Source: Escherichia coli
GTDB taxonomy: Bacteria > Pseudomonadota > Gammaproteobacteria > Enterobacterales > Enterobacteriaceae
DNA: 64,000 nucleotides
Assembly (NCBI RefSeq): GCF_001677475.2
Contig: NZ_CP015229.1
Direction: 5' to 3' (one strand)
A model generated the notes under the pieces. That model searched no databases, had not been told where the DNA came from, and saw only the letters and a program-made list of their open reading frames with translations. Shown one piece after another: positions 24,075 through 34,106 of this stretch (position 1 is the stretch's first letter; each line of letters begins with the position of its first letter). Both the position numbers and the translations under genes were made by a program.

Positions 24075-24239
24075 ATGGAATTTCACGAAAACAAAGCTAA
24101 AGCACCGTTTATTGGACTTGTGCAACTCTGGCAGGTGATGAGGCGTTGGCGGCGGCAAATGCAGACCCGACGAGTGTTACAGCAGATGAGTGATGAGCGG
24201 TTGAGGGATATTGGGTTACGCAGGGAGGATGTGGAGTGA
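24075..24239 (+). CDS. yjiS: DUF1127 small protein YjiS
   Basis: Manual translation MEFHENKAKAPFIGLVQLWQVMRRWRRQMQTRRVLQQMSDERLRDIGLRREDVE (54 aa); GAGGAGG SD 6 nt upstream. Below the track's length cutoff. Confidence 0.75.
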   Translation: MEFHENKAKAPFIGLVQLWQVMRRWRRQMQTRRVLQQMSDERLRDIGLRREDVE

Positions 24240-24335: not shown

Positions 24336-26429
24336 ATGAAAGCAACAGAAGCCCGTTTACTCGATTTTTTAAAACGTTCGCAGCAGTTTGTTATTCCCAT
24401 TTATCAACGCACCTATTCATGGACAGAGCAACAATGTCGGCAACTTTGGGACGACATCATTCGTGCCGGAAAGCGTGACGATATATCCGCGCATTTTATC
24501 GGTTCGGTTGTTTATATAGAGCAGGGGTTGTATCAGGTTTCCGGTATTTCTCCGTTGCTGGTCATTGATGGTCAACAGCGGCTGACGACCGCAATGTTGC
24601 TGATTGAGGCTTTATCGCGCCATCTTGGCGAAGAAGAAGTTTTTGATGGCTTTTCGGCAATGAAATTGCGTAATTATTATTTACTCAATCCTTATGAGTC
24701 CGGTGAGAAAGGATTTAAATTACTGCTGACCGAGACCGATAAAGACAGTTTGCTGGTGTTAATAAAACAAAGACCAATGCCAGAAAACTATTCCCATCGA
24801 ATAATGGAAAATTTTAGTTTCTTTGATGAGCAAATTACCAAACTCGGTGATGACTTGATCCCCTTATGTCGTGGGTTAGCAAAGCTATTAATTGTCGATG
24901 TGGCGCTTAATCGTGGTCAGGATAATCCGCAACTGATTTTTGAAAGTATGAACTCCACCGGTAAGGCGTTAAGTCAGGCCGATCTGGTGCGCAATTTTAT
25001 TCTGATGGGCCTCGAACCAGAGCATCAAACACGGTTGTATGAAGATCACTGGCGTCCAATGGAAATCGCTTTTGGTCAGCAAGGTTACAGCGAATATTTT
25101 GACAGTTTTATGCGTCATTATCTGACGGTAAAAACGGGGGAGATCCCTCGGACAGATGAAGTCTATGAGGCATTTAAACTACATGCCCGCAGCCAGAGTG
25201 TTGCTGAAAAAGGCGTAGATCGGCTGGTTGAAGATATACACATCTACGCGGAGTATTACTGTGCAATGGCATTGGGTAAGGAAAGTGACAAATCGCTTGC
25301 CACGGCTTTTCAGGATTTGCGCGAGTTAAAGGTCGATGTGGCGTATCCTTTCTTACTGGCGCTTTATCATGACTATAAAAATGGCGTTTTGTCTCACGAA
25401 GATTTCCTGAGCATAATTCGTTTAATTGAATCTTATGTTTTCCGCCGTGCAGTGTGTGCAATTCCGACGAATTCTTTGAACAAGACGTTTGCCACTTTTT
25501 ATAAGATCATTAATAAAGAAAATTATCTGGAAAGCATTCAGGTGCATTTTATGAACCTGCCTTCGTATCGTCGTTTCCCCAACGATGATGAATTTAAACG
25601 GGAATTAAAAGTTCGCGATCTCTATAACTTCCGCAGTCGCAGCTACTGGTTACGACGACTAGAAAACGATAAACGCAGAGAGCGCGTGGAAGAGTTTACG
25701 ATTGAGCACATTATGCCGCAGAACGAAAACCTGTCGGCTAAATGGCGCGAAGAGCTGGGAAGCGACTGGCAGCGTATTCATAAAGAATTGTTGCATACGT
25801 TGGGGAATCTCACTTTAACGCGCTATAACTCCCGCTACAGTGACAGACCTTTCGCGGAAAAACGCGATATTGAAGACGGCTTTAAGCATAGCCCGCTCTA
25901 TTTGAATATCGGTCTTGGGCAGTGCGAAAAATGGGATGAAGCCGCCATTCGCGCCCGAGCCGATCGTCTGGCCGATCTCGCGGTTCAGGTCTGGCAAGCG
26001 CCTTCTCTTCCTGAAGAGGTATTAGCTGTTTATCGGGGTCAGCCGGAGAACAAAACCAGTTACAGCCTGAGTGATTATCCTTTCCTTGCTGATGGTTCGC
26101 ATAGCCGGGTGTTATTCGATCATCTTCGCGATGAAGTTATGCGCCTGGACGCAGGGATCACACAGGAAGTTTTAAAGCTGTATATTGCGTTTAAAGCGGA
26201 AACGAATTTTGTTGATGTTGTGCCGCAAAAAAGCCGACTGCGATTGTCGCTTAATATGCAGTTTCATGAACTGGTCGATCCGAAAGGTATTGCCAAAGAT
26301 GTGACAAATGTTGGGCGCTGGGGCAATGGTGATGTGGAAATTGGTTTCAGCGACCTCGCACAACTTCCTTACATTATGGGATTAATTCGTCAGGCATTTG
26401 AAAAACAGATGGAGAGTGCGTTGGTATAA
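24336..26429 (+). CDS. GmrSD-family (DUF262 + DUF1524/His-Me finger) putative type IV modification-dependent restriction endonuclease
   Basis: 697-aa ORF; N-terminal DUF262 signature (PIYQRTYSW...LLVIDGQQRLTT), C-terminal DUF1524-like region (FTIEHIMPQN...LGNLTLTRYN). Confidence 0.7.
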   Translation: MKATEARLLDFLKRSQQFVIPIYQRTYSWTEQQCRQLWDDIIRAGKRDDISAHFIGSVVYIEQGLYQVSGISPLLVIDGQQRLTTAMLLIEALSRHLGEEEVFDGFSAMKLRNYYLLNPYESGEKGFKLLLTETDKDSLLVLIKQRPMPENYSHRIMENFSFFDEQITKLGDDLIPLCRGLAKLLIVDVALNRGQDNPQLIFESMNSTGKALSQADLVRNFILMGLEPEHQTRLYEDHWRPMEIAFGQQGYSEYFDSFMRHYLTVKTGEIPRTDEVYEAFKLHARSQSVAEKGVDRLVEDIHIYAEYYCAMALGKESDKSLATAFQDLRELKVDVAYPFLLALYHDYKNGVLSHEDFLSIIRLIESYVFRRAVCAIPTNSLNKTFATFYKIINKENYLESIQVHFMNLPSYRRFPNDDEFKRELKVRDLYNFRSRSYWLRRLENDKRRERVEEFTIEHIMPQNENLSAKWREELGSDWQRIHKELLHTLGNLTLTRYNSRYSDRPFAEKRDIEDGFKHSPLYLNIGLGQCEKWDEAAIRARADRLADLAVQVWQAPSLPEEVLAVYRGQPENKTSYSLSDYPFLADGSHSRVLFDHLRDEVMRLDAGITQEVLKLYIAFKAETNFVDVVPQKSRLRLSLNMQFHELVDPKGIAKDVTNVGRWGNGDVEIGFSDLAQLPYIMGLIRQAFEKQMESALV

Positions 26430-26475
26430 CGTGGCGAATAATACCCGGTAGCACTGGCGCTACCGGGTCAATCTA

Positions 26476-26817
26476 TCAGGCGACTTTCTGTTTACCGGCA
26501 ATCACCCCAATAAATTCCTGCACCTGCTTTTGTTTACGTGCCGACAGCTTGCACACCTGGCGCAGTGACTGCATCAGTTCGCTCTCTTCGGGGGCGGGTG
26601 GTTGGGTGGTGAGGATAATACAGCCTTCCATCACTTTGACATCTACCGCCGTGCCAGTGGCAAAACCGGCGGCTTCCAGCCACTGACCTTTCAGGGTGAT
26701 GGCGGGAATGCGGCTGTAATCCGGGTAGCGACTCGCATAACTCACGGTTAATTGACGGTTATTTGCTGGGGAGACTTCTGCTTCGAACGGTTGTGCAATA
26801 GAATGCGTGTCAGTCAT
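26476..26817 (-). CDS. symE: SOS-induced toxin-like protein SymE
   Basis: Translation from ATG 26817, [34 protein letters not shown]... (113 aa), recognised as SymE; the track ORF extends upstream to 26874. Confidence 0.85.
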
Positions 26818-26885
26818 GATTACTATTCCTTTGAAATAGGGATTGTGATTAGCGGTGCGGGTGTGTTGGCGCACATCCGCACCGC
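26800..26885 (+). ncRNA. symR: Probable SymR antisense sRNA (approximate placement)
   Basis: Placed by homology logic only: SymR is described as antisense to the symE 5' end. A 9-bp perfect hairpin (gcggtgcgg/ccgcaccgc, about 26852-26884) lies at the expected 3' end. Ends not determined. Confidence 0.3.
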
Positions 26886-26894
26886 GCTAAATAC

Positions 26895-27037: not shown

Positions 27038-28798
27038 TTAGTTTATCGCCGCGTCAGTGAGTGCGTCTGCAAGGTGCAGTTGGGTTTGCTGGGCGGATTG
27101 GATATGATTCTTTAATTCTTCACATAGTTTATAAAAAATATGTAGTTTACTCATTATTTTTTTTGCTTCTGAGCTAGGAGGAATAGCAACAGGACAACCT
27201 CTGAGCTGGGTTTTATTAATAGAGGCTAAATTAGTGGTTTGCTTACTTGCGTTAGCAAAATATTGTCTTGAGAATGGGCTATTCATATATGTTTCTAACC
27301 AATATGGATCAACATCTTGCCCTATATTTCGTCCTTTGAATACATGGTTTTGATTTGCTATATACCAGTCATGACACCATACTGTAGTTCTCCCGACTGT
27401 ATCCCAGTCGCCGCCTTCTGTGATCAATAAATCTCCCTTGACTACTTGATATTTTTCTTTTTCCTCAATAGGGATTTCAATCTGTTTAATTTCCGTAAGA
27501 TCAAGATATCCGCGTTGGACGTTTGCCACACGTAAATAAGGAACTTTTACCAAAGTTCTATTTGATAAATTTCTTCCTTTAGTGATACCACTTTGAATAT
27601 CAATAATATCTTCAAATAAACACCACTCCCACCCTTCCGGCAGTTCAAATGGTTTTTCCTCATCGCTAATTGGCGGCAACGGTTTTTGTTTTTTTATTTT
27701 TCCTTTTTTCACCAGTTGAGCTTTTTCCTGCGCAATTCGTTTGAGCAGTTCAGAGGCAGGTTCGTCATTCGGATCCTGCGGCACAAGTTTACCCATTACG
27801 GCCAGTTGCAGAATGGTCTGTTTTAATGCATCCACGCTGGCTTCGGTGGTAAATAGTGTGTCGAAATGCTCGCTAATACGCGCCCAGTTTTCAGCCAGTT
27901 CCTCGGCGTTTTGGCTGTCTGTAAGCGTTCCCAACAGGGTTTCAACCAGTTGCTGATGTGCGTCCAGACTGGCCAAGGATTGCTGTTCCAGTTGGTCGCA
28001 AAGGGACATGAGCTCCTGTACTTTGGATACAATACGTATTTGTTCTTGGTAAGGTGGTAAAATAACAGGGATCTCTTTTAACTTAGACGCTTTTATTCCT
28101 GTTGCGGTCATGCCTGTAGATTTGTCACTTAGTTGTGACTGGAAGGGGATCGCCAGGATTTGAATAAGCATAAAAGGGCTTATCTCTGGAGTATGCCATT
28201 GAAAACAGATAGAACGTTGAGCAAGAGCGAACTTTCCGTCTAAATCAATAATCGCTGCATTCCCCAGTGGTGCTTCAGTCGTGAATAAAATATCACCACA
28301 TTTAGGAAAGCCTCTTGTCATCCATGATATGTAATCTTCTTCAGATATGAACTCTTCTGGATTGAGATCAATATAGCCCTTTCTGATATTTTTTGCTGTT
28401 ATAAGCCTTATACCATTTTCTTTTTTATGTGGTGTTTTTCCTCGGTAATCGATGAATTTAGCTAAATTACCAAGTCTTATCCATGACCACTTTTCGGGGG
28501 TATCGATATAATATTCATTTCCATGGATATTAGTGCTTGCTGTGGTTTTCATACCATTATTGCGCGCTAATTCTTTTTTCCGTTCTTCATTACGCTTCAG
28601 CAGCTCCGACGCTGGTTCATCATTCGGATCCTGCGGCACTAGTTTACCGCGCACCGCCAGTTCCAGAATCAGCTCACGCAATTTCTTAATGCCATACAAA
28701 TCAATTTTACCGGAACTGCCGCGCCCGGCGGTGGAACGGGTTTGCAACGCCGAGGTCCAGGTTGCCATATGATCAACGATCAGCTTTTCCACACTCAT
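27038..28798 (-). CDS. hsdS: Type I restriction-modification specificity subunit HsdS
   Basis: 586-aa ORF with two target-recognition domains and a duplicated conserved spacer (LVPQDPNDEPASELLKR at both about aa 45 and about aa 335); ATG overlaps the hsdM stop (ATGA). Confidence 0.85.
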   Translation of the reverse strand: MSVEKLIVDHMATWTSALQTRSTAGRGSSGKIDLYGIKKLRELILELAVRGKLVPQDPNDEPASELLKRNEERKKELARNNGMKTTASTNIHGNEYYIDTPEKWSWIRLGNLAKFIDYRGKTPHKKENGIRLITAKNIRKGYIDLNPEEFISEEDYISWMTRGFPKCGDILFTTEAPLGNAAIIDLDGKFALAQRSICFQWHTPEISPFMLIQILAIPFQSQLSDKSTGMTATGIKASKLKEIPVILPPYQEQIRIVSKVQELMSLCDQLEQQSLASLDAHQQLVETLLGTLTDSQNAEELAENWARISEHFDTLFTTEASVDALKQTILQLAVMGKLVPQDPNDEPASELLKRIAQEKAQLVKKGKIKKQKPLPPISDEEKPFELPEGWEWCLFEDIIDIQSGITKGRNLSNRTLVKVPYLRVANVQRGYLDLTEIKQIEIPIEEKEKYQVVKGDLLITEGGDWDTVGRTTVWCHDWYIANQNHVFKGRNIGQDVDPYWLETYMNSPFSRQYFANASKQTTNLASINKTQLRGCPVAIPPSSEAKKIMSKLHIFYKLCEELKNHIQSAQQTQLHLADALTDAAIN

Positions 28799-30267
28799 CA
28801 GTTAACCTCCTTGCCAGACAGCGCAGCGCCAAGAATATCGCGCAGTTGATTACGCAGCGTCTGGATCTCCGCCTGCTGTTTTGCATACTGCGCTAACAAT
28901 TCATCTGGATCATGGCTGACGGTTTCCGCCTGATGTGGGTTTTTAATATCCAGATTGAAGTTACGCGCAATCACGTCATCAATGCTGACTTTCCACGCCT
29001 GCTCATTCTCGACGCGGCTGGCAAAACCATCGGCCTCGTTACCCCACCAGTCGATCTCCGCCTGAAACTCTTCAAACTTCATCGGCTTGGTTTTGCTGTA
29101 ATTTTTCACGCCCGCCGGATACGGATGCTCATAGAACCAAATCTCTTTGGTTGGCTGACCTTTGGTAAAGAACAACAGGTTGGTTTTAATGCCGGTATAG
29201 GGGTTAAACACACCATTTGGTAAACGCACGATGGTATGCAGGTTGCACTCTTCGGTAAGTAGCTTTTTGATTTTGGTTTTAACACCTTCGCCAAATAGCG
29301 TGCCATCCGGCAATACCACCGCCGCGCGACCGTTTTTCGCCAGTACTTCCACAATCAGTTGCAGGAACAGATCCGCCGTTTCGCGGGTTTGCATCTCTGC
29401 CGGAAAGTTCTTCTCAATACCGTCTTCTTCCGTGCCACCAAACGGCGGGTTGGTAACAATGACATCCAGTTGTTCATCCCAGGAGGAAAGCGGTTTGTTC
29501 AGGGTGTTGTCGTGACGAATTTGTACCGGTACTTCAATGCCGTGCAGCAGCATATTGGTGGTCGCCAGCAGGTGCGGAAGCTGTTTTTTCTCAACACCGT
29601 GGATCTGTTGTTGCAGCGTCTGATGATCGGCGACGCTCTTCACGTATTTGTTCTTTACATGATCGAACGCGCAGGCAAGAAAACCGCCCGTACCGCAGGC
29701 CGGGTCCATAATGGATTCGCCGAGTTTCGGATCAACGCGATCCACCATAAAGCGAGTGACGGCGCGTGGAGTATAGAATTCGCCCGCATTGCCCGCAGAT
29801 TGCAGATCTTTAAGGATCTGTTCGTAAATATCACCAAACAGATGGCGTTCGCTGGCGCTGGTAAAGTCAATTTCGTTCAGCTTGTTGATCACCTGACGCA
29901 GTAGCGTACCGTTTTTCATATAGTTATAGGCATCGCTGAACGCCTGCTTCACCACGTAGCCGCGTGGGTTTTTATCGATAGGCGCAGTGAGGTTTTTCAA
30001 CGCCGGGAACAGATCATCATTAACGAATTCCAGCAGGGAATCACCGGTAATGCCCTGAGCGTTTGCGGCCCAACTGCGCCATAAATAACGCTGTGGGATC
30101 GGATATTGATAGTTATCCTGCTCCAGTTCCAGCGCCTCTTCCTGGGCATCGAAGATTTTCAAAAACAGCAGCCAGGAGAGCTGACCGAGACGCTGCGCAT
30201 CGCCGTCCACACCGGCATCTTTGCGCATAATATCTTGTAATGATTTGATTACTGAACTGATAGACAT
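28798..30267 (-). CDS. hsdM: Type I restriction-modification N6-adenine methyltransferase HsdM
   Basis: N6-Mtase motifs (DPACGTGGFL; NPPFGG); start placed at ATG 30267 (MSISSVIK...), since the more upstream ATGs lie in or next to the hairpin that follows hsdR. Confidence 0.85.
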   Translation of the reverse strand: MSISSVIKSLQDIMRKDAGVDGDAQRLGQLSWLLFLKIFDAQEEALELEQDNYQYPIPQRYLWRSWAANAQGITGDSLLEFVNDDLFPALKNLTAPIDKNPRGYVVKQAFSDAYNYMKNGTLLRQVINKLNEIDFTSASERHLFGDIYEQILKDLQSAGNAGEFYTPRAVTRFMVDRVDPKLGESIMDPACGTGGFLACAFDHVKNKYVKSVADHQTLQQQIHGVEKKQLPHLLATTNMLLHGIEVPVQIRHDNTLNKPLSSWDEQLDVIVTNPPFGGTEEDGIEKNFPAEMQTRETADLFLQLIVEVLAKNGRAAVVLPDGTLFGEGVKTKIKKLLTEECNLHTIVRLPNGVFNPYTGIKTNLLFFTKGQPTKEIWFYEHPYPAGVKNYSKTKPMKFEEFQAEIDWWGNEADGFASRVENEQAWKVSIDDVIARNFNLDIKNPHQAETVSHDPDELLAQYAKQQAEIQTLRNQLRDILGAALSGKEVN

Positions 30268-30289
30268 GTTGTATTCCATGAAAAACAAG

Positions 30290-30320
30290 GCCTTCTGCAA
30301 CATGATGGTTGCAGAAGGCG
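30290..30320 (-). terminator. Hairpin plus T-run between hsdR and hsdM (terminator/attenuator candidate)
   Basis: gccttctgcaac-atgatg-gttgcagaaggc perfect 12-bp stem; on the minus strand it is followed by TTGTTTTTC immediately before the hsdM start. Confidence 0.5.
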
Positions 30321-30333
30321 CAAAAGAGAGTTG

Positions 30334-32766
30334 TTAAGCAGAGCGGGGCGGTAATTGGTAGATTTCGTTTTCCAGCTCGCTGAGCGCCTGATTATACCCG
30401 TTACGGTCGCCAAATCCGGTTTTAATAATCTCCGGTAAGGTGCCCATGCTGTCGAATGGTTTAAGTTTCAGCACCTGAATACTTTCGATCTCCTGTACGC
30501 CCGCATCGGCGTATTTATCCAGCAGATTATCGAGCACGGCTTGCGCTGCTTCAGAGTATTTTGTGAAGTAGTTCCGCTTGCGCACGTTCTCGGCGCGCTC
30601 TTTGCGGGTTAACGGCGGCTGACCATACACTACGTGGCAAAGCATGTCGAACGGGTCGAGATCTTTACCGACTTCTTCTGCCAGCACTTCCCAGATGATC
30701 CCCTGTTGCTCCAGCTCGTGAATGATCGCTTCTTTGCGATCGGCGTCCTGCCACTTGCGGGTAAAGTCATCCAGCGAGGCATATTCTTTGAGCAGTGTTT
30801 TACGGGTGTAATCTTTAAAGGATTCGGTAACCAGTTTTCCGTCGGCATCGTAATACTGAACGCGCTGTGCAATAACGCCCACCGCCACGCCATTGACGTG
30901 AAACTTGCGGATTTTCTTCTCGTCTTCTTCCGGAAGTGGGCCAACATCATCGGTATCGGTAACCTGGTATGGCGGCGCAGGCGGTTCATCAACGCCTGTC
31001 ACCTGCTCTTCGTCATGTTCGCTGATTTCTTCGAGTTTCTCTTCAAAATCAGATTCTGGATCGGCGATATCCTCTGGTGTGGTATCCATGACTTTTTCGG
31101 GAATGCCATCGAAACGCTCATCGGCAAACAGTTCGGTGGCTTTTTTAAAGTCGAGGATGGTAAACCAGAGTTTGCCGTAACGTTCGTCGATGCGTGTACC
31201 ACGACCGATAATCTGCTTGAATTTGGTCATCGACTGGATGTTCTGATCCAGTACTACCAGTTTGCAGGTTTTAGCATCCACACCGGTGGTCATCAGCTCT
31301 GAAGTGGTCGCGATAACCGGGTACGGTTTTTTCGGGTTGATGAAGTTATCCAACTGAGCTTTGCCAATTTCATCATCACCGGTAATTTTCATGACGTATT
31401 TGTCGTTCTTTTTCACCTGCTCCGGGTTGAGATTAACCAGGGCGCGGCGCATACGTTCTGCATGATCGATGTCGTTACAGAAGACGATGGTTTTATCCAT
31501 CGGGTTGGTGCGCTTGAGGTAGTCGGTAATGGTTCTGGCAACCAGTTCTGTGCGTTCGTCGATTACCATTGTGCGATCGAAATCTTTCTGGTTATAGATA
31601 CGATCGTCGATCACTTCGCCGTTTAAGTCAGTTTGCCCTTTGGTTGGGCGCCAGCCTTGCAGATCAACATCAATATCAACACGGACAACTTTATAAGGGG
31701 CGAGGAAGCCGTCTTCGATCCCTTCTTTTAGCGAGTAGACGTAAACCGGATCGCCGAAGTAATCCGTGCTGGAGACTTCATGGGTCTCTTTTGGCGTGGC
31801 GGTTAAGCCAATTTGGGTGGCGGAGCTGAAATAATCAAGGATCTCTCGCCAGGCGCTGTCTTCGGATGCGCTGCCGCGATGGCATTCGTCGATCACGATC
31901 AGATCGAAGAAATCTGGTGCGACTTGTTTAAACGCTTTTTGGTCTTCCTCCGGGCCAGTTATAGCCTGATAGAGTGCGAGGTGTATTTCATAAGCGGGAT
32001 CAATGGTGCGCCCGCTGACTTTGGTCATTGCCGTACCAAATGGCTGGAAATCATTATTTTTGGTTTGGTCGACCAGAATGTTGCGATCGGCAAGGAACAG
32101 AATGCGTTTTTTATTTTTTGATTTCCACAGGCGCCAGATGATCTGGAATGCGGTATAGGTTTTCCCTGTTCCGGTCGCCATTACCAGCAGAACACGGTTT
32201 TGCCCGTTGGAGACGGCTTCTATGGTTTTGTTGATTGCCTGAAGCTGGTAATAACGTGGCGATTTACCGCTGCCATCGTCGTAATAGTCCTGAGTAATCA
32301 CCGGAAGCTGAGCTTGTGTGTATCCTTTCCAGAGGCAGAATTTTTGCCAGAGTTCAGCGGGGGAGGGGAAGTCATCCAGCGTTATTTGCTTTTCAAGGCA
32401 TTCACCTTCGGCTGCGGTAGCATCGCGGAAGATAAAGCCATCACCGTTGGTGGCAAAAACAAAAGGAACGTCCAGCAGGCGCGCGTATTCAATGCCCTGT
32501 TGCATCCCTTTGCCAATTTCATGTTTGTTGGCTTTTGCTTCAATCACGGCTAAGGGAATGCCTGGTTTGTGATACAGCACGATGTCAGCAGATTTTACCG
32601 TTCTGCGTGCCGCAACTTTACCACGTACGATGACTTTACCGTCCCGGAGTTTGACCTCCTGTCTGATTTGCGTTGTGTTGTCCCAGCCTGCATTGAGAAT
32701 GGCTGGCATAACGCATTTGGTAATGATGTCTGCTTCCGTCAGGTTACTTAGGTTCAGTTCCGCCAT
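30334..32766 (-). CDS. hsdR: Type I restriction enzyme endonuclease/helicase subunit HsdR, short form (type IB/EcoAI-like)
   Basis: 810-aa ORF; PD-(D/E)XK N-terminus, SF2 helicase motifs (MATGTGKT; DECHR). The 810-aa length is well below the roughly 1170 aa I recall for EcoKI HsdR and matches what I recall for type IB. Confidence 0.85.
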
Positions 32767-32906
32767 GGGGTGTTCTCATCTAAATGCGATGCGCAAATTC
32801 TACACAGAAAAATAGATGAATTCATCTGTTCAAAGAGTATTATCAGCGTTAAGTCACTGTTTTAAAGGTATTCTTGAGTTTCATCAATAGTAGGATAAGG
32901 ATTCAT

Positions 32907-33875
32907 ATGGAGAATGTTCGGTTCTTGCAAGGAGTGAAACAATATTTTTGTACTAAGGCATTAGATGTCATTCTGCTAATTTATCTACTCCTTGGTTTTA
33001 TACTTCTCCCTTATAAATATCTGTGGAAAGATATTATTTTATCTCTGTGCTTTGTTGGTATTCTTCTTTATGCATTAGTGGAAGAAAATCGCATTACAGA
33101 ATATATGGGGTATTTTGTCAAGTTCAGTAATAAAAACAGTTTGAATAGTTGTGCTGCCTGGTGTTCACTTATTGCATGGTTTATATTTTTGTTTTTTGTG
33201 CTTTCAATTAATATTTTTCCAGTCAGTGTCTCTGTATACGTTTTTAGTGCTTTTTCAGTATTTGTTTTTCTGGGAGGTGTTTTTATTATATTAGAGTTGG
33301 AATTTAAAAATAATAAAAAATTAATGATTATTAGGTCTATGACTTTAGCTGTCATACCAATTATATATTTATTCTCAAGTAGTTTTTCTTCCAGTTTATT
33401 TTTAAGTTTGAGTAATCTAAATATCACACTATCACCATGGGTTGAGTATTTCTGGAAAGGGATGGCTTTTTTGTTTCTTTTCTTCATGTTAATGCAACTT
33501 ATTATCTATTTTACTTTTTTAACTCTGTGGGCTAAATTAAGTGTGTACAGGTTGTTTATACTTGCCGGAGCATTTATAGCATCTACTATTTTAGTGGTTT
33601 TTGCTTCAAAAAACGTAGAGAGTATTTCGTACTACGTTTTAAAAAGTACTATAGATTTTGAATGGCGCAGTCAGGTTAAATGTGGACAGTTGAATATTTC
33701 ACATCCGGATGAAAGGTATTTCGGGTTTAATACCGATAAATATACTGTATTTTATTCCAATAGAGAGGGTAAATGGGGGTTCAATGAGTTGAAATGTAAG
33801 AAAGGTTCTGACAGGAGAGATGCATATTCCATTGAGAATGTCTCAGAATATAACGTGCCAGGATGGCTGAAATAA
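32907..33875 (+). CDS. Uncharacterized AT-rich polytopic membrane protein (about 6-7 TM) with about 85-aa soluble C-terminal domain; sits where K-12 has mrr
   Basis: Track ORF 32874..33875 starts at TTG; preferred start ATG 32907 with AAGGA SD 5 nt upstream. Strongly hydrophobic N-terminal 240 aa, hydrophilic C-terminus; visibly AT-rich; no recognisable catalytic motif. Confidence 0.6.
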   Translation: MENVRFLQGVKQYFCTKALDVILLIYLLLGFILLPYKYLWKDIILSLCFVGILLYALVEENRITEYMGYFVKFSNKNSLNSCAAWCSLIAWFIFLFFVLSINIFPVSVSVYVFSAFSVFVFLGGVFIILELEFKNNKKLMIIRSMTLAVIPIIYLFSSSFSSSLFLSLSNLNITLSPWVEYFWKGMAFLFLFFMLMQLIIYFTFLTLWAKLSVYRLFILAGAFIASTILVVFASKNVESISYYVLKSTIDFEWRSQVKCGQLNISHPDERYFGFNTDKYTVFYSNREGKWGFNELKCKKGSDRRDAYSIENVSEYNVPGWLK

Positions 33876-33914
33876 GTTATCTTTATAATTAAATCGTAAA
33901 GGTTCTGGACATAA

Positions 33915-34106
33915 ATGAGCATGGTTAAACATAAACGGGGCACACTCTACACACTTGATGTGCAGCAAGAAGCTGAACTCAAGGCTTTGGTTAATAAATC
34001 CGACGATTATATTGATTACAGCGATATTCCTGCGTCTGGTAGCGATGCATGGGCTGACGCCAAACGCAGCAATTTTTTGCCAAATCCAGGTATTCACGCG
34101 CAATAA
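33915..34106 (+). CDS. Small BrnA/DUF4415-like protein (possibly truncated antitoxin-like remnant)
   Basis: 63-aa ORF 40 nt after the membrane-protein stop; motif IDYSDIPASGSDAWADAKR resembles the DUF4415/BrnA signature; no ribbon-helix-helix tail and no BrnT-like partner seen. Confidence 0.4.
   Translation: MSMVKHKRGTLYTLDVQQEAELKALVNKSDDYIDYSDIPASGSDAWADAKRSNFLPNPGIHAQ

Follow-up and report, generated by a model that had tools for sequence, protein, structure and literature searches.

Does the gene that lies next to the Type I restriction-modification (R-M) operon of many Escherichia coli strains encode a Type IV restriction enzyme, or a nuclease that follows a different logic? We examined this question in a 64,000-nucleotide stretch of E. 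coli DNA (contig NZ_CP015229.1 of assembly GCF_001677475.2; hereafter, the window), in which a preliminary description had proposed a GmrSD-family candidate Type IV restriction enzyme of 697 aa. This hedged label is a fair one, and the literature uses it for the same locus, the immigration control region (ICR) (PMC4437046; PMC12707154). The gene is therefore already known: ICR copies were listed as putative GmrSD homologues by He et al. 2015 (PMC4437046), hold 12% of ICR loci (EcoSal Plus 2025, PMC12707154), and appear as CLS_001 in PMC12373910. According to the text of the last paper, a CLS_001 representative was synthesised and challenged with T-even phages, and five further systems were active, their identities being given in figure images. 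The literature text yielded no functional result for the ICR gene, the CLS_001 outcome being confined to those images, and papers on DUF5655, on the locus tags, or on 'Orf5' with DUF262 held nothing informative beyond He et al. 2015. Two features set the otherwise ordinary window gene apart: a DUF5655 domain that had gone unnoticed, and a relationship to DndI that is closer than the one to the classical Type IV enzymes.

Domain architecture and predicted structure

The gene is an ORF with an ATG start and zero internal stops (Table 1), and its product is identical to GenBank ANO92262.1 and to the protein of locus L003. The preliminary description had named the motifs DGQQR and EHIMPQN, both of which we located, and had suggested a Pfam/HMMER search for DUF262 and DUF1524. 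That search matched both domains with E-values far beyond chance, over model positions 2-198/199 (PF03235) and 2-137/138 (PF07510). Given two strong HMM matches and catalytic motifs that hold throughout the family, the protein is a member of the GmrSD superfamily, as had been claimed from its architecture. The two-domain account was nevertheless incomplete, since it had overlooked a third domain, DUF5655, at the C-terminus. The protein has no model in NCBIfam.

Across 66 aligned family members (34-82% identity), D78, Q80, Q81, R82, P461, and N491 never vary, and conservation reaches at least 90% at G79, E457, H458, Q462, and N498; all of the catalytic residues are present in the window protein. 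Within EHIMPQN, E457 and H458 form the putative catalytic pair, with N491 and N498 further downstream.

A confident AlphaFold2 model (mean pLDDT 89.5, pTM 0.77) places DUF262, with a ParB-like fold, and DUF1524 on one chain with a long helical linker between them; the inter-domain helices span residues 228 to 406 with pLDDT mostly above 85. The nuclease domain has the strand-strand-helix arrangement expected for a His-Me finger (455-458, 492-495, and 498-501). Foldseek matches of the whole model were DndI (6e-17), SspE (3e-14), and BrxU (6e-5), all of them GmrSD-like, with no others. The fold of DUF5655 is YdhG/YjbR-like (helix-five strands-helix), a placement by fold comparison alone, as phmmer with this domain returned zero matches among PDB sequences at E<=10. 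A profile search of a 5.8-billion-protein set with the same domain yielded, for the most part, C-terminal pieces of this family's own proteins and did not reveal other domain partners.

Table 1. Features of the gene and its neighbours (window coordinates).
Feature	Position	Strand	Basis and remarks
yjiS (DUF1127, 54 aa)	24075..24239	+	conserved, directly upstream; annotated in orthologous loci
GmrSD-superfamily gene	24336..26429	+	complete ORF, 697 aa + stop; ORF list and translation
DUF262/GmrSD_N (ParB-like NTPase), N-terminal	24360..25001	+	residues 9-222; Pfam PF03235, E 1.5e-34
DGQQR nucleotide-hydrolysis motif	24567..24581	+	residues 78-82; motif position
All-helical linker region	25002..25577	+	residues 223-414; AlphaFold2 secondary structure
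DUF1524/GmrSD_C His-Me finger nuclease domain	25578..25976	+	residues 415-547; Pfam PF07510, E 1.5e-26
EHIMPQN nuclease motif	25704..25724	+	residues 457-463; motif position
DUF5655, C-terminal	26106..26405	+	residues 591-690; Pfam PF18899, E 3.4e-13
10-bp inverted repeat ACCCGGTAGC...GCTACCGGGT	26443..26468	.	between the convergent GmrSD-like gene and symE; read from sequence
symE (SOS-induced toxin)	26476..26817	-	convergent neighbour; annotated in orthologous loci, Pfam SymE_toxin
symR antisense RNA	26812..26888	+	Rfam RF01809, 93.4 bits, E 6e-17
Type I R-M operon, EcoAI/Type IB family	27038..32766	-	ORFs; RefSeq names and Pfam families in orthologous loci
hsdS	27038..28798	-	part of Type I R-M operon
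hsdM	28798..30303	-	part of Type I R-M operon
hsdR	30334..32766	-	part of Type I R-M operon

Kinship with characterised DUF262-DUF1524 nucleases

Among solved structures, the best match is DndI of Salmonella enterica Cerro 87 (PDB 9JFL; phmmer 4e-13, profile 1e-38 over residues 6-555), with an identity of only ~19% in the structural alignment. Both proteins join a DUF262 domain with DGQQR through a helical linker to a DUF1524 nuclease, but DndI, at 596 aa, lacks the DUF5655 domain of the window protein. DndI is co-transcribed with dndFGH beside dndBCDE, and its self mark is phosphorothioate; it attacks unmodified DNA, and on self DNA the host mark brings about its release (PMC11662687). The second-best PDB match, SspE (6JIV/7DRS), combines a DUF262 NTPase with a DUF1524 nickase, has 771 aa and a different C-terminal region, and requires phosphorothioation by SspABCD for its activation; its sequence similarity to the window protein is significant in the first ~100 residues only. 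PADLOC gave a comparable picture, with 'Orf5' as the top model (737 bits), which is grouped with phosphorothioate-system models, and only 95 bits for the Type IV model mREase_IV. The top ranking of DndI and SspE shows relatedness, not shared function. Because both are governed by host modification and DndI cuts DNA without the mark, architecture alone cannot establish modification-dependent (Type IV) cutting. These nearest characterised relatives are not Type IV enzymes, which counts against a Type IV reading.

A likeness to BrxU and SspE had also been proposed. For SspE it holds by sequence, profile, and fold; for BrxU, it is confined to a weak fold match (14% identity), with no sequence or profile match at E<=1. 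BrxU and the classical GmrSD enzymes (Eco94GmrSD and CT596 GmrSD) have in common with the window protein the two-domain core, DGQQR, and (D/E)HxxP, and their genes likewise lie within or adjoin a methylation-based defence system. They differ in lacking DUF5655; moreover, classical GmrSD genes are prophage-borne, and BrxU carries an RLFDS nucleotide-binding motif and is embedded in a BREX locus, whereas no BREX genes occur in the annotated stretches of the window. The PDB matches included no GmrSD structure, and for classical GmrSD the comparison is that of He et al., who reported 24% identity between an ICR homologue and Eco94GmrSD (PMC4437046).

Two further GmrSD-like systems, TgvAB (Vibrio cholerae VPI-2) and HEC-06, lie inside Type I R-M or Hma clusters and defend alone, whereas the window gene stands beside, and convergent to, an hsd operon. 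TgvAB needs two proteins in place of a single polypeptide, and HEC-06 has ~560 aa and no DUF5655. The HEC-06 models of PADLOC match the window protein at 7e-68 (residues 8-555), and phage defence by HEC-06, a stand-alone relative, is abolished by mutation of DGQQR or EH (bioRxiv 10.1101/2024.01.29.577857).

The closest counterparts are the ICR GmrSD homologues APECO1_2080, UTI89_C5048, and ECP_4674 (PMC4437046), which occupy the same chromosomal site in the same gene order (Rpn-like gene, yjiR/yjiS, GmrSD homologue, symE, hsdS-hsdM-hsdR, yjiA). Two members listed for CLS_001 (PMC12373910), D782_3934 (= P0044) and WP_001531297, share 74 and 76% identity, respectively, with the window protein. 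Nothing substantive separates the window gene from the ICR homologues, and it is an allele of this known, uncharacterised gene. APECO1_2080 is annotated with 733 aa, presumably from an upstream start, and is equated with the window gene by gene order alone.

Locus, spread and intactness

The site is the ICR, with the order yjiR-yjiS-[GmrSD-like gene]-symE/symR-hsdS-hsdM-hsdR-yjiA, and this defence-island setting places yjiR, yjiS, symE, hsdSMR, a membrane protein gene, and yjiA within ~10 kb of the gene. The hsd operon (PADLOC REase_I match, 1704 bits) is a neighbouring system, linked to the gene by position alone; in the window, the GmrSD-like gene is a separate transcription unit convergent to hsdSMR, with symE between them. 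Co-transcription with yjiS is possible, and the 96-bp gap between the two genes contains no strong promoter-like site. Promoter and terminator scans near the gene found nothing above shuffle expectation; the inverted repeat between the gene and symE was missed by the terminator scan, as it lacks a T run. Annotation covered ~1-16500 and ~14000-42000 of the window and showed no dnd, ssp, or BREX genes there, and PADLOC was blank for symE, a 322-aa membrane protein, a 63-aa antitoxin-like ORF, the Rpn-like gene, a pentapeptide protein, and IatD.

The gene occurs in ~25% of complete E. coli genomes at 96-97% nucleotide identity and belongs to the commonest GmrSD cluster in enterobacteria. Relative to the ATCC 8739 allele, the window copy shows 56 synonymous and 10 non-synonymous differences (dN/dS 0.045), which indicates purifying selection. 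In RefSeq, the locus appears as a fragment of a pseudogene followed by a short CDS, from which the E. coli orthologues could be taken for pseudogenes; direct translation refuted this, the ORFs being uninterrupted in six of the nine E. coli RefSeq copies examined, and the split is thus an annotation artefact. The E. albertii copy is intact as well. Three of the nine copies are truly broken, by frameshifts in O157:H7 EC4115 and EH01-18-02 and by a stop at codon 330 in O55:H7 DEC5B, and in an even sample of 51 full-length E. coli matches, ~14 fall short by 1 bp. The preliminary description had regarded a disrupted frame in related strains as the sign of a pseudogene; such disruption does exist, but because the window copy is intact, as are six of nine RefSeq copies, and dN/dS is 0.045, the window gene is not a pseudogene.

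Relatives with all three domains are intact in many phyla and share 60-68% identity across Chloroflexota, Actinomycetota, and an archaeal MAG, unlike the fast-diverging GmrSD variants, driven by phage inhibitors, that PMC12373910 describes, a contrast that speaks against the Type IV reading. Close members of the family number roughly 2,800. From 80 species-representative loci, we compared the 21 three-domain loci that have 5 kb or more of flank on either side with two-domain relatives; a Type I R-M gene lay within 10 kb in 13 of 21 versus 3 of 19 loci, respectively (Fisher p 0.004). Kiritimatiella carries the gene inside the operon (hsdM-hsdS-[gene]-hsdR), with overlaps of 4 bp; in Oceanimonas and Psychrobacter it comes immediately after the hsd genes, and in some Type I-adjoining relatives stop and start codons overlap. 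Further relatives adjoin Type IIG, DISARM, or Wadjet-like genes, and none of the homologue loci inspected contained dnd or ssp genes. An apparent GmrSD-HsdR fusion in locus L024 was rejected, as the frame is an off-frame left open in a GC-rich genome and the real genes overlap by ATGA.

Proposed function and competing explanations

Judged from its sequence, the gene encodes a real GmrSD-superfamily defence nuclease, probably with Type IV specificity. Our preferred reading, to which we assign a probability of roughly 0.55, is that of an intact, selectively maintained, single-polypeptide nuclease acting as a Type IV-style back-up to the adjacent Type IB R-M system. In GmrSD and BrxU, cleavage is NTP-stimulated. 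In the window protein, the ParB-like DUF262 domain would bind and hydrolyse NTP via DGQQR and serve as a switch governing the His-Me finger (E457/H458, N491, and N498), which would nick or cut DNA. The YdhG/YjbR-like DUF5655 domain probably supplies an extra DNA contact or sensing surface. The target would be incoming phage DNA with bases modified to evade the adjacent methylation-protected Type I system, a role for which BrxU beside BREX and TgvAB within a Vibrio Type I cluster offer precedents; that the particular modification cannot be read from the sequence, as stated in the preliminary description, agrees with our view. That frameshifts or nonsense mutations have removed the gene from several E. 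coli lineages counts against the back-up reading.

The kinship with DndI suggests another logic, in which the protein is a second R-M effector that responds to a host 'self' mark, with N6-methyladenine from the neighbouring Type I or another methyltransferase as the most plausible one, and either attacks unmarked DNA or is activated or released by the mark. DndI, which works in this manner, leads the PDB matches by sequence, profile, and fold, with SspE next and BrxU far behind; the three-domain subfamily is often translationally coupled within hsd operons, loci without Type I genes are often near another methyltransferase-based system, and an equivalent of DndI Y25 is present (Y23 in VIPIYQR), though this motif is general to DUF262. 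The window gene, however, is on the strand opposite to hsdSMR with symE intervening, and near-identical alleles occur with differing Type I families and specificity subunits, so a sequence-specific mark is not what is read. In ATCC 8739, an IS3 element truncates hsdM, yet the ORF is intact, which disfavours DndI-like self-toxicity in the absence of the mark. Type I R-M genes are lacking within 10 kb in eight of the 21 well-flanked three-domain loci, and in five of these eight, no methyltransferase system was detected; in addition, the tested relatives embedded in Type I or BREX loci (TgvAB and BrxU) work independently of the host system. We therefore consider this logic unlikely for the window gene. 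A wider version, in which the whole DUF5655-bearing DndI-like branch is no autonomous Type IV enzyme but a widely transferred accessory effector of methylation-based, chiefly Type I, restriction, with adenine methylation or Hsd contact as the self signal, comparable to phosphorothioate for DndI and SspE, and the C-terminal domain as its reader, would explain both the cross-phyla conservation and the frequent translational coupling inside hsd operons, and we regard it as quite unlikely.

The same conservation is easier to reconcile with a generic target than with a phage modification confined to one lineage, and the nuclease might instead be triggered by a phage protein (e.g. an anti-restriction factor), a DNA structure, or replication intermediates, with DUF5655 as the sensor. 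The fold of that domain resembles ligand- or DNA-binding modules of undefined specificity, and the preferred partners of the gene are systems that phages block with Ocr-like proteins. We give such a trigger a low probability, as the characterised DUF262-DUF1524 enzymes GmrSD, BrxU, TgvAB, SspE, and DndI all read the modification state of DNA. The broken copies, the 1-bp-short matches, and the RefSeq annotation would suit a relic that is decaying or inactive and serves no function today; given the intact window ORF with its full set of catalytic residues, the low dN/dS, the artefactual nature of the RefSeq split, and the intact three-domain orthologues in many phyla, we judge this highly improbable.

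Because the gene is so abundant, its target matters for the host range of phage therapy and for the introduction of modified DNA into wild strains. The relationship to DndI, together with the tendency to lie inside Type I R-M operons, makes it a useful test case for whether all non-phosphorothioate DUF262-DUF1524 proteins are Type IV enzymes. Because RefSeq splits intact copies into a pseudogene and a fragment, censuses of defence systems overlook the gene.

Domain architecture and nearest characterised relatives

The preliminary description had read a protein of 697 aa with an N-terminal DUF262 domain carrying DGQQR and a C-terminal DUF1524-like region carrying EHIMPQN. The ORF list and translation bore this out: the frame is the sole long ORF at its position, and Pfam-A profiles matched both domains significantly, with DGQQR at residues 78-82 and EHIMPQN at residues 457-463. 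The two-domain picture was incomplete in one respect, the unreported DUF5655 domain near the C-terminus. No further DGQQR-type motif was found in any frame of the whole window. Among 66 relatives with 34-82% identity, D78, Q80, Q81, R82, P461 and N491 were invariant, and G79, E457, H458, Q462 and N498 were conserved in at least 90%. The protein is a genuine, intact member of the GmrSD superfamily.

Features of the window and domains of the GmrSD-like protein
Feature	Position	Strand	Remarks
iatD (inverse autotransporter)	5796-11036		left part of the window
Low-GC stretch	13602-15575		contains a pentapeptide-repeat protein
yjiS	24075-24239		directly before the GmrSD-like ORF in gene order
GmrSD-like ORF	24336-26429	+	ATG start, 697 codons, zero internal stops
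GmrSD_N (PF03235)	residues 9-222		E 1.5e-34
GmrSD_C (PF07510)	residues 415-547		E 1.5e-26
DUF5655 (PF18899)	residues 591-690		E 3.4e-13
symE	26476-26817	-	convergent with the GmrSD-like gene
symR antisense RNA	26812-26888	+	Rfam RF01809, 93 bits; overlaps the symE 5′ end
hsdS-hsdM-hsdR	27038-32766	-	Type I operon, EcoAI family
Insert between hsdR and yjiA	32874-34106		GC about 0.32
Two tRNA genes	63768-63972		right end of the window

The AlphaFold2 model (pLDDT 89.5, pTM 0.77) begins with a mixed N-terminal domain, followed by a long helical linker (228-406), a nuclease core formed by a strand-strand-helix (455-458, 492-495 and 498-501) and, last of its four parts, a compact C-terminal module. 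When this model was compared with the PDB using Foldseek, only GmrSD-like enzymes rose above noise, with DndI (9JFL, 6e-17) first, SspE (7DRS, 3e-14) second and BrxU (7P9K, 6e-5) third. Sequence searches gave the same order: DndI was matched at 4e-13 with the single sequence, and the family profile matched it at 1e-38 over residues 6-555; SspE was matched at 7e-22, and BrxU was absent at E≤1 from sequence and profile searches against the PDB. In PADLOC, the best model was 'Orf5' (737 bits, full-length over residues 10-553). Because its accession numbers fall among phosphorothioate-system models, we infer that 'Orf5' may be a name for the DndI-type gene. PADLOC models of HEC-06 (bioRxiv 10.1101/2024.01.29.577857) matched at 7e-68, the generic Type IV model reached only 95 bits, and the candidate family PDC-S18 matched the C-terminal domain alone; no NCBIfam model matched the protein.

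The third domain had zero sequence-level matches in the PDB. Its fold matched a YdhG-like protein (9T2W, 9.8), DR2400 (DUF419, 8.8), E. coli YjbR (8.6), a COG5646 protein (7.0), the DNA-binding C-terminal domain of T4 MotA (6.3) and also frataxins, and it would suit a module that binds DNA or a ligand. GmrSD homologues with extra, variable C-terminal domains, DUF4268 among others, were described by Machnicka et al. (2015), who did not name DUF5655. Because some relatives, of about 800-985 aa, carry other C-terminal extensions and others, of about 560 aa, carry none, this module is swappable.

Distribution and integrity in the E. coli immigration control region

The surrounding DNA is the E. 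coli immigration control region (ICR), in the order mdtM, Rpn-family gene, yjiR, yjiS, GmrSD-like ORF, symE/symR, hsdS-hsdM-hsdR, low-GC insert and yjiA. The symE/symR toxin/antitoxin pair, which here separates the GmrSD-like gene from hsdS, lies between mcrBC and hsdS in K-12. The insert beyond hsdR, which may be another variable ICR cassette, encodes a 322-aa multi-pass membrane protein, unmatched in PADLOC, and a 63-aa ORF named 'antitoxin' by RefSeq; strain SK1144 carries a Fic-family protein and a BrnA antitoxin at this site instead.

The protein is identical at every residue to E. coli GenBank entries (e.g. ANO92262.1), and an identical locus is present in a draft E. coli assembly. The gene was matched in 1,480 of 5,426 complete RefSeq E. 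coli genomes, with at least 80% of it held by 1,360, mostly at 96-97% nucleotide identity; none of the 5,426 reached at least 99% identity over the gene. Because the left flank (1-16500) attains only about 98% identity at best in this collection, the source strain has no close representative there.

RefSeq divides the E. coli copies into a pseudogene ('DUF262, missing C-terminus') and a 387-aa 'GmrSD restriction endonuclease domain-containing protein', an annotation that would make the orthologues pseudogenes. Direct translation ruled this out: the copies of ATCC 8739, GPT24-02, E2865, UPEC 26-1, YDC107 and MS8345 (697 codons) and of E. albertii (698 codons) are uninterrupted. All six intact copies checked (L002:6001-8094 of ATCC 8739, L001:10324-12417, L094-L096 and L098) were split in this way, and the 387-aa CDS begins at an internal Met of the uninterrupted 697-codon ORF. 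The RefSeq/PGAP split thus looks like a systematic annotation artefact, which would conceal the gene from censuses.

The preliminary description had raised disrupted frames in related strains as a sign of a pseudogene, and such frames do occur, but beside the intact ones. Three copies are truly inactivated: O157:H7 EC4115 (L005:3001-5093) has lost 1 bp from a GGGGG run at gene nucleotide 801, EH01-18-02 (L099) has a different frameshift, and in O55:H7 DEC5B (L097) codon 330 is a stop. In an even sample of 51 full-length matches, about 14 were 1 bp short. The gene has degenerated in some lineages, a frequent fate of defence genes. The O157:H7 frameshift yields separate DUF262-only and DUF1524-only ORFs, recalling the historical 'GmrS/GmrD' split.

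E. coli SK1144 (L006:6001-8100) carries a second allele or paralogue (699 aa, 76% identical), a type found in about 73 complete genomes at 73% nucleotide identity and located in some E. coli at the other ICR end, adjoining a different, larger Type I system (781-aa HsdM). In ATCC 8739 (L002:10460-12350), an IS3 element has truncated the neighbouring hsdM, hsdR is absent, and next comes a second DUF262 protein (WP_000387532, cluster CLS_005); the GmrSD-like ORF is still intact.

Relatives and Type I linkage across taxa

An exhaustive search returned 19,544 representatives at an E-value threshold of 1e-3 and 2,779 at one of 1e-30. Conservation of the three-domain protein is unusually high. Identity was at least 70% in Halomonas, Psychrobacter, Oceanimonas, Nitrincola and Kiritimatiella, 60-68% in species representatives of Anaerolineales, Pseudonocardia, Mycolicibacterium, Erythrobacter and Polaromonas, and 65% in a Methanococcoides MAG, where the contig's taxon rests on binning as deposited.

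In Kiritimatiella glycovorans (L007:4257-13243), the order is hsdM-hsdS-[homologue]-hsdR with 4-bp overlaps. Five loci from distant taxa (L007, L019, L015, L021 and L024) place the homologue between hsdM/hsdS and hsdR on one strand with ATGA stop/start overlaps, which imply translational coupling with the Type I genes; an apparent fusion frame in L024 was rejected, being an open off-frame of the kind that arises in GC-rich genomes. The homologue overlaps the hsdR end in Oceanimonas, follows hsdMSR and a YgjP-like gene in Psychrobacter and adjoins Wadjet-like genes in Nitrincola.

HsdM, HsdR and HsdS profiles built from the inspected loci were run on 80 species-representative loci. Where at least 5 kb was available on both sides, a Type I R-M gene lay within 10 kb in 13 of 21 three-domain loci and in 3 of 19 two-domain loci (Fisher p = 0.004). 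Overall, 21 of 43 three-domain loci were linked, 12 with a gap of ≤300 bp and six with the homologue embedded in the same orientation. Where Type I genes were missing, some loci had Type IIG enzymes or a DISARM methylase in their place. Nesting of GmrSD-like genes in Type I, Hma and BREX clusters is a general tendency already published.

Predicted action and published record

Mutating DGQQR or (D/E)H residues abolishes the function of BrxU, HEC-06, TgvB, SspE and DndI. Analogy with the characterised relatives suggests an enzyme in which NTP hydrolysis by the DUF262 domain would gate a His-Me finger that would nick or cut DNA, the likely substrate being modified foreign DNA, in a role complementary to the Type I system. 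We favour this Type IV-style reading, at a probability of roughly 0.55, because most stand-alone and R-M-embedded members set the precedent and because it suits a complement to Type I. The estimate is held there because the nearest relatives, DndI and SspE, take host modification as a self signal and because the family is far more conserved than GmrSD variants driven by phage inhibitors.

An effector regulated by a host mark, as the kinship with DndI and SspE might suggest, is nevertheless unlikely: the gene is convergent to the Type I operon, Type I partners differ between copies, and the ATCC 8739 ORF is intact despite a broken hsdM. A trigger unrelated to DNA modification is similarly doubtful, and we consider it quite improbable that the DUF5655-bearing, DndI-like branch, for all its Type I linkage, is an accessory effector of methylation-based restriction and not an autonomous Type IV enzyme. 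Intact ORFs and a dN/dS of 0.045, calculated from the 56 synonymous and 10 non-synonymous changes that separate the window gene from the ATCC 8739 allele, indicate that the gene is functional at the protein level here and in most carriers, and an inert relic is very improbable, the broken copies notwithstanding. The hedged label of the preliminary description, candidate type IV restriction enzyme, is supported.

The finding is a re-identification of an already known GmrSD candidate of modest interest whose function is putative. He et al. 2015 (PMC4437046) listed putative ICR-associated GmrSD homologues of APEC O1, UTI89, 536 and CFT073, with the gene order of the window and 24% identity to Eco94GmrSD, and a review (EcoSal 2025, PMC12707154) places GmrSD in 12% of ICR loci. 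A study of 2025 (PMC12373910) clustered enterobacterial GmrSD proteins and challenged one synthesised representative of each group with T-even phages. The largest of its clusters, CLS_001, counts D782_3934 and WP_001531297 among its members, with 74 and 76% identity, respectively, to the window protein.
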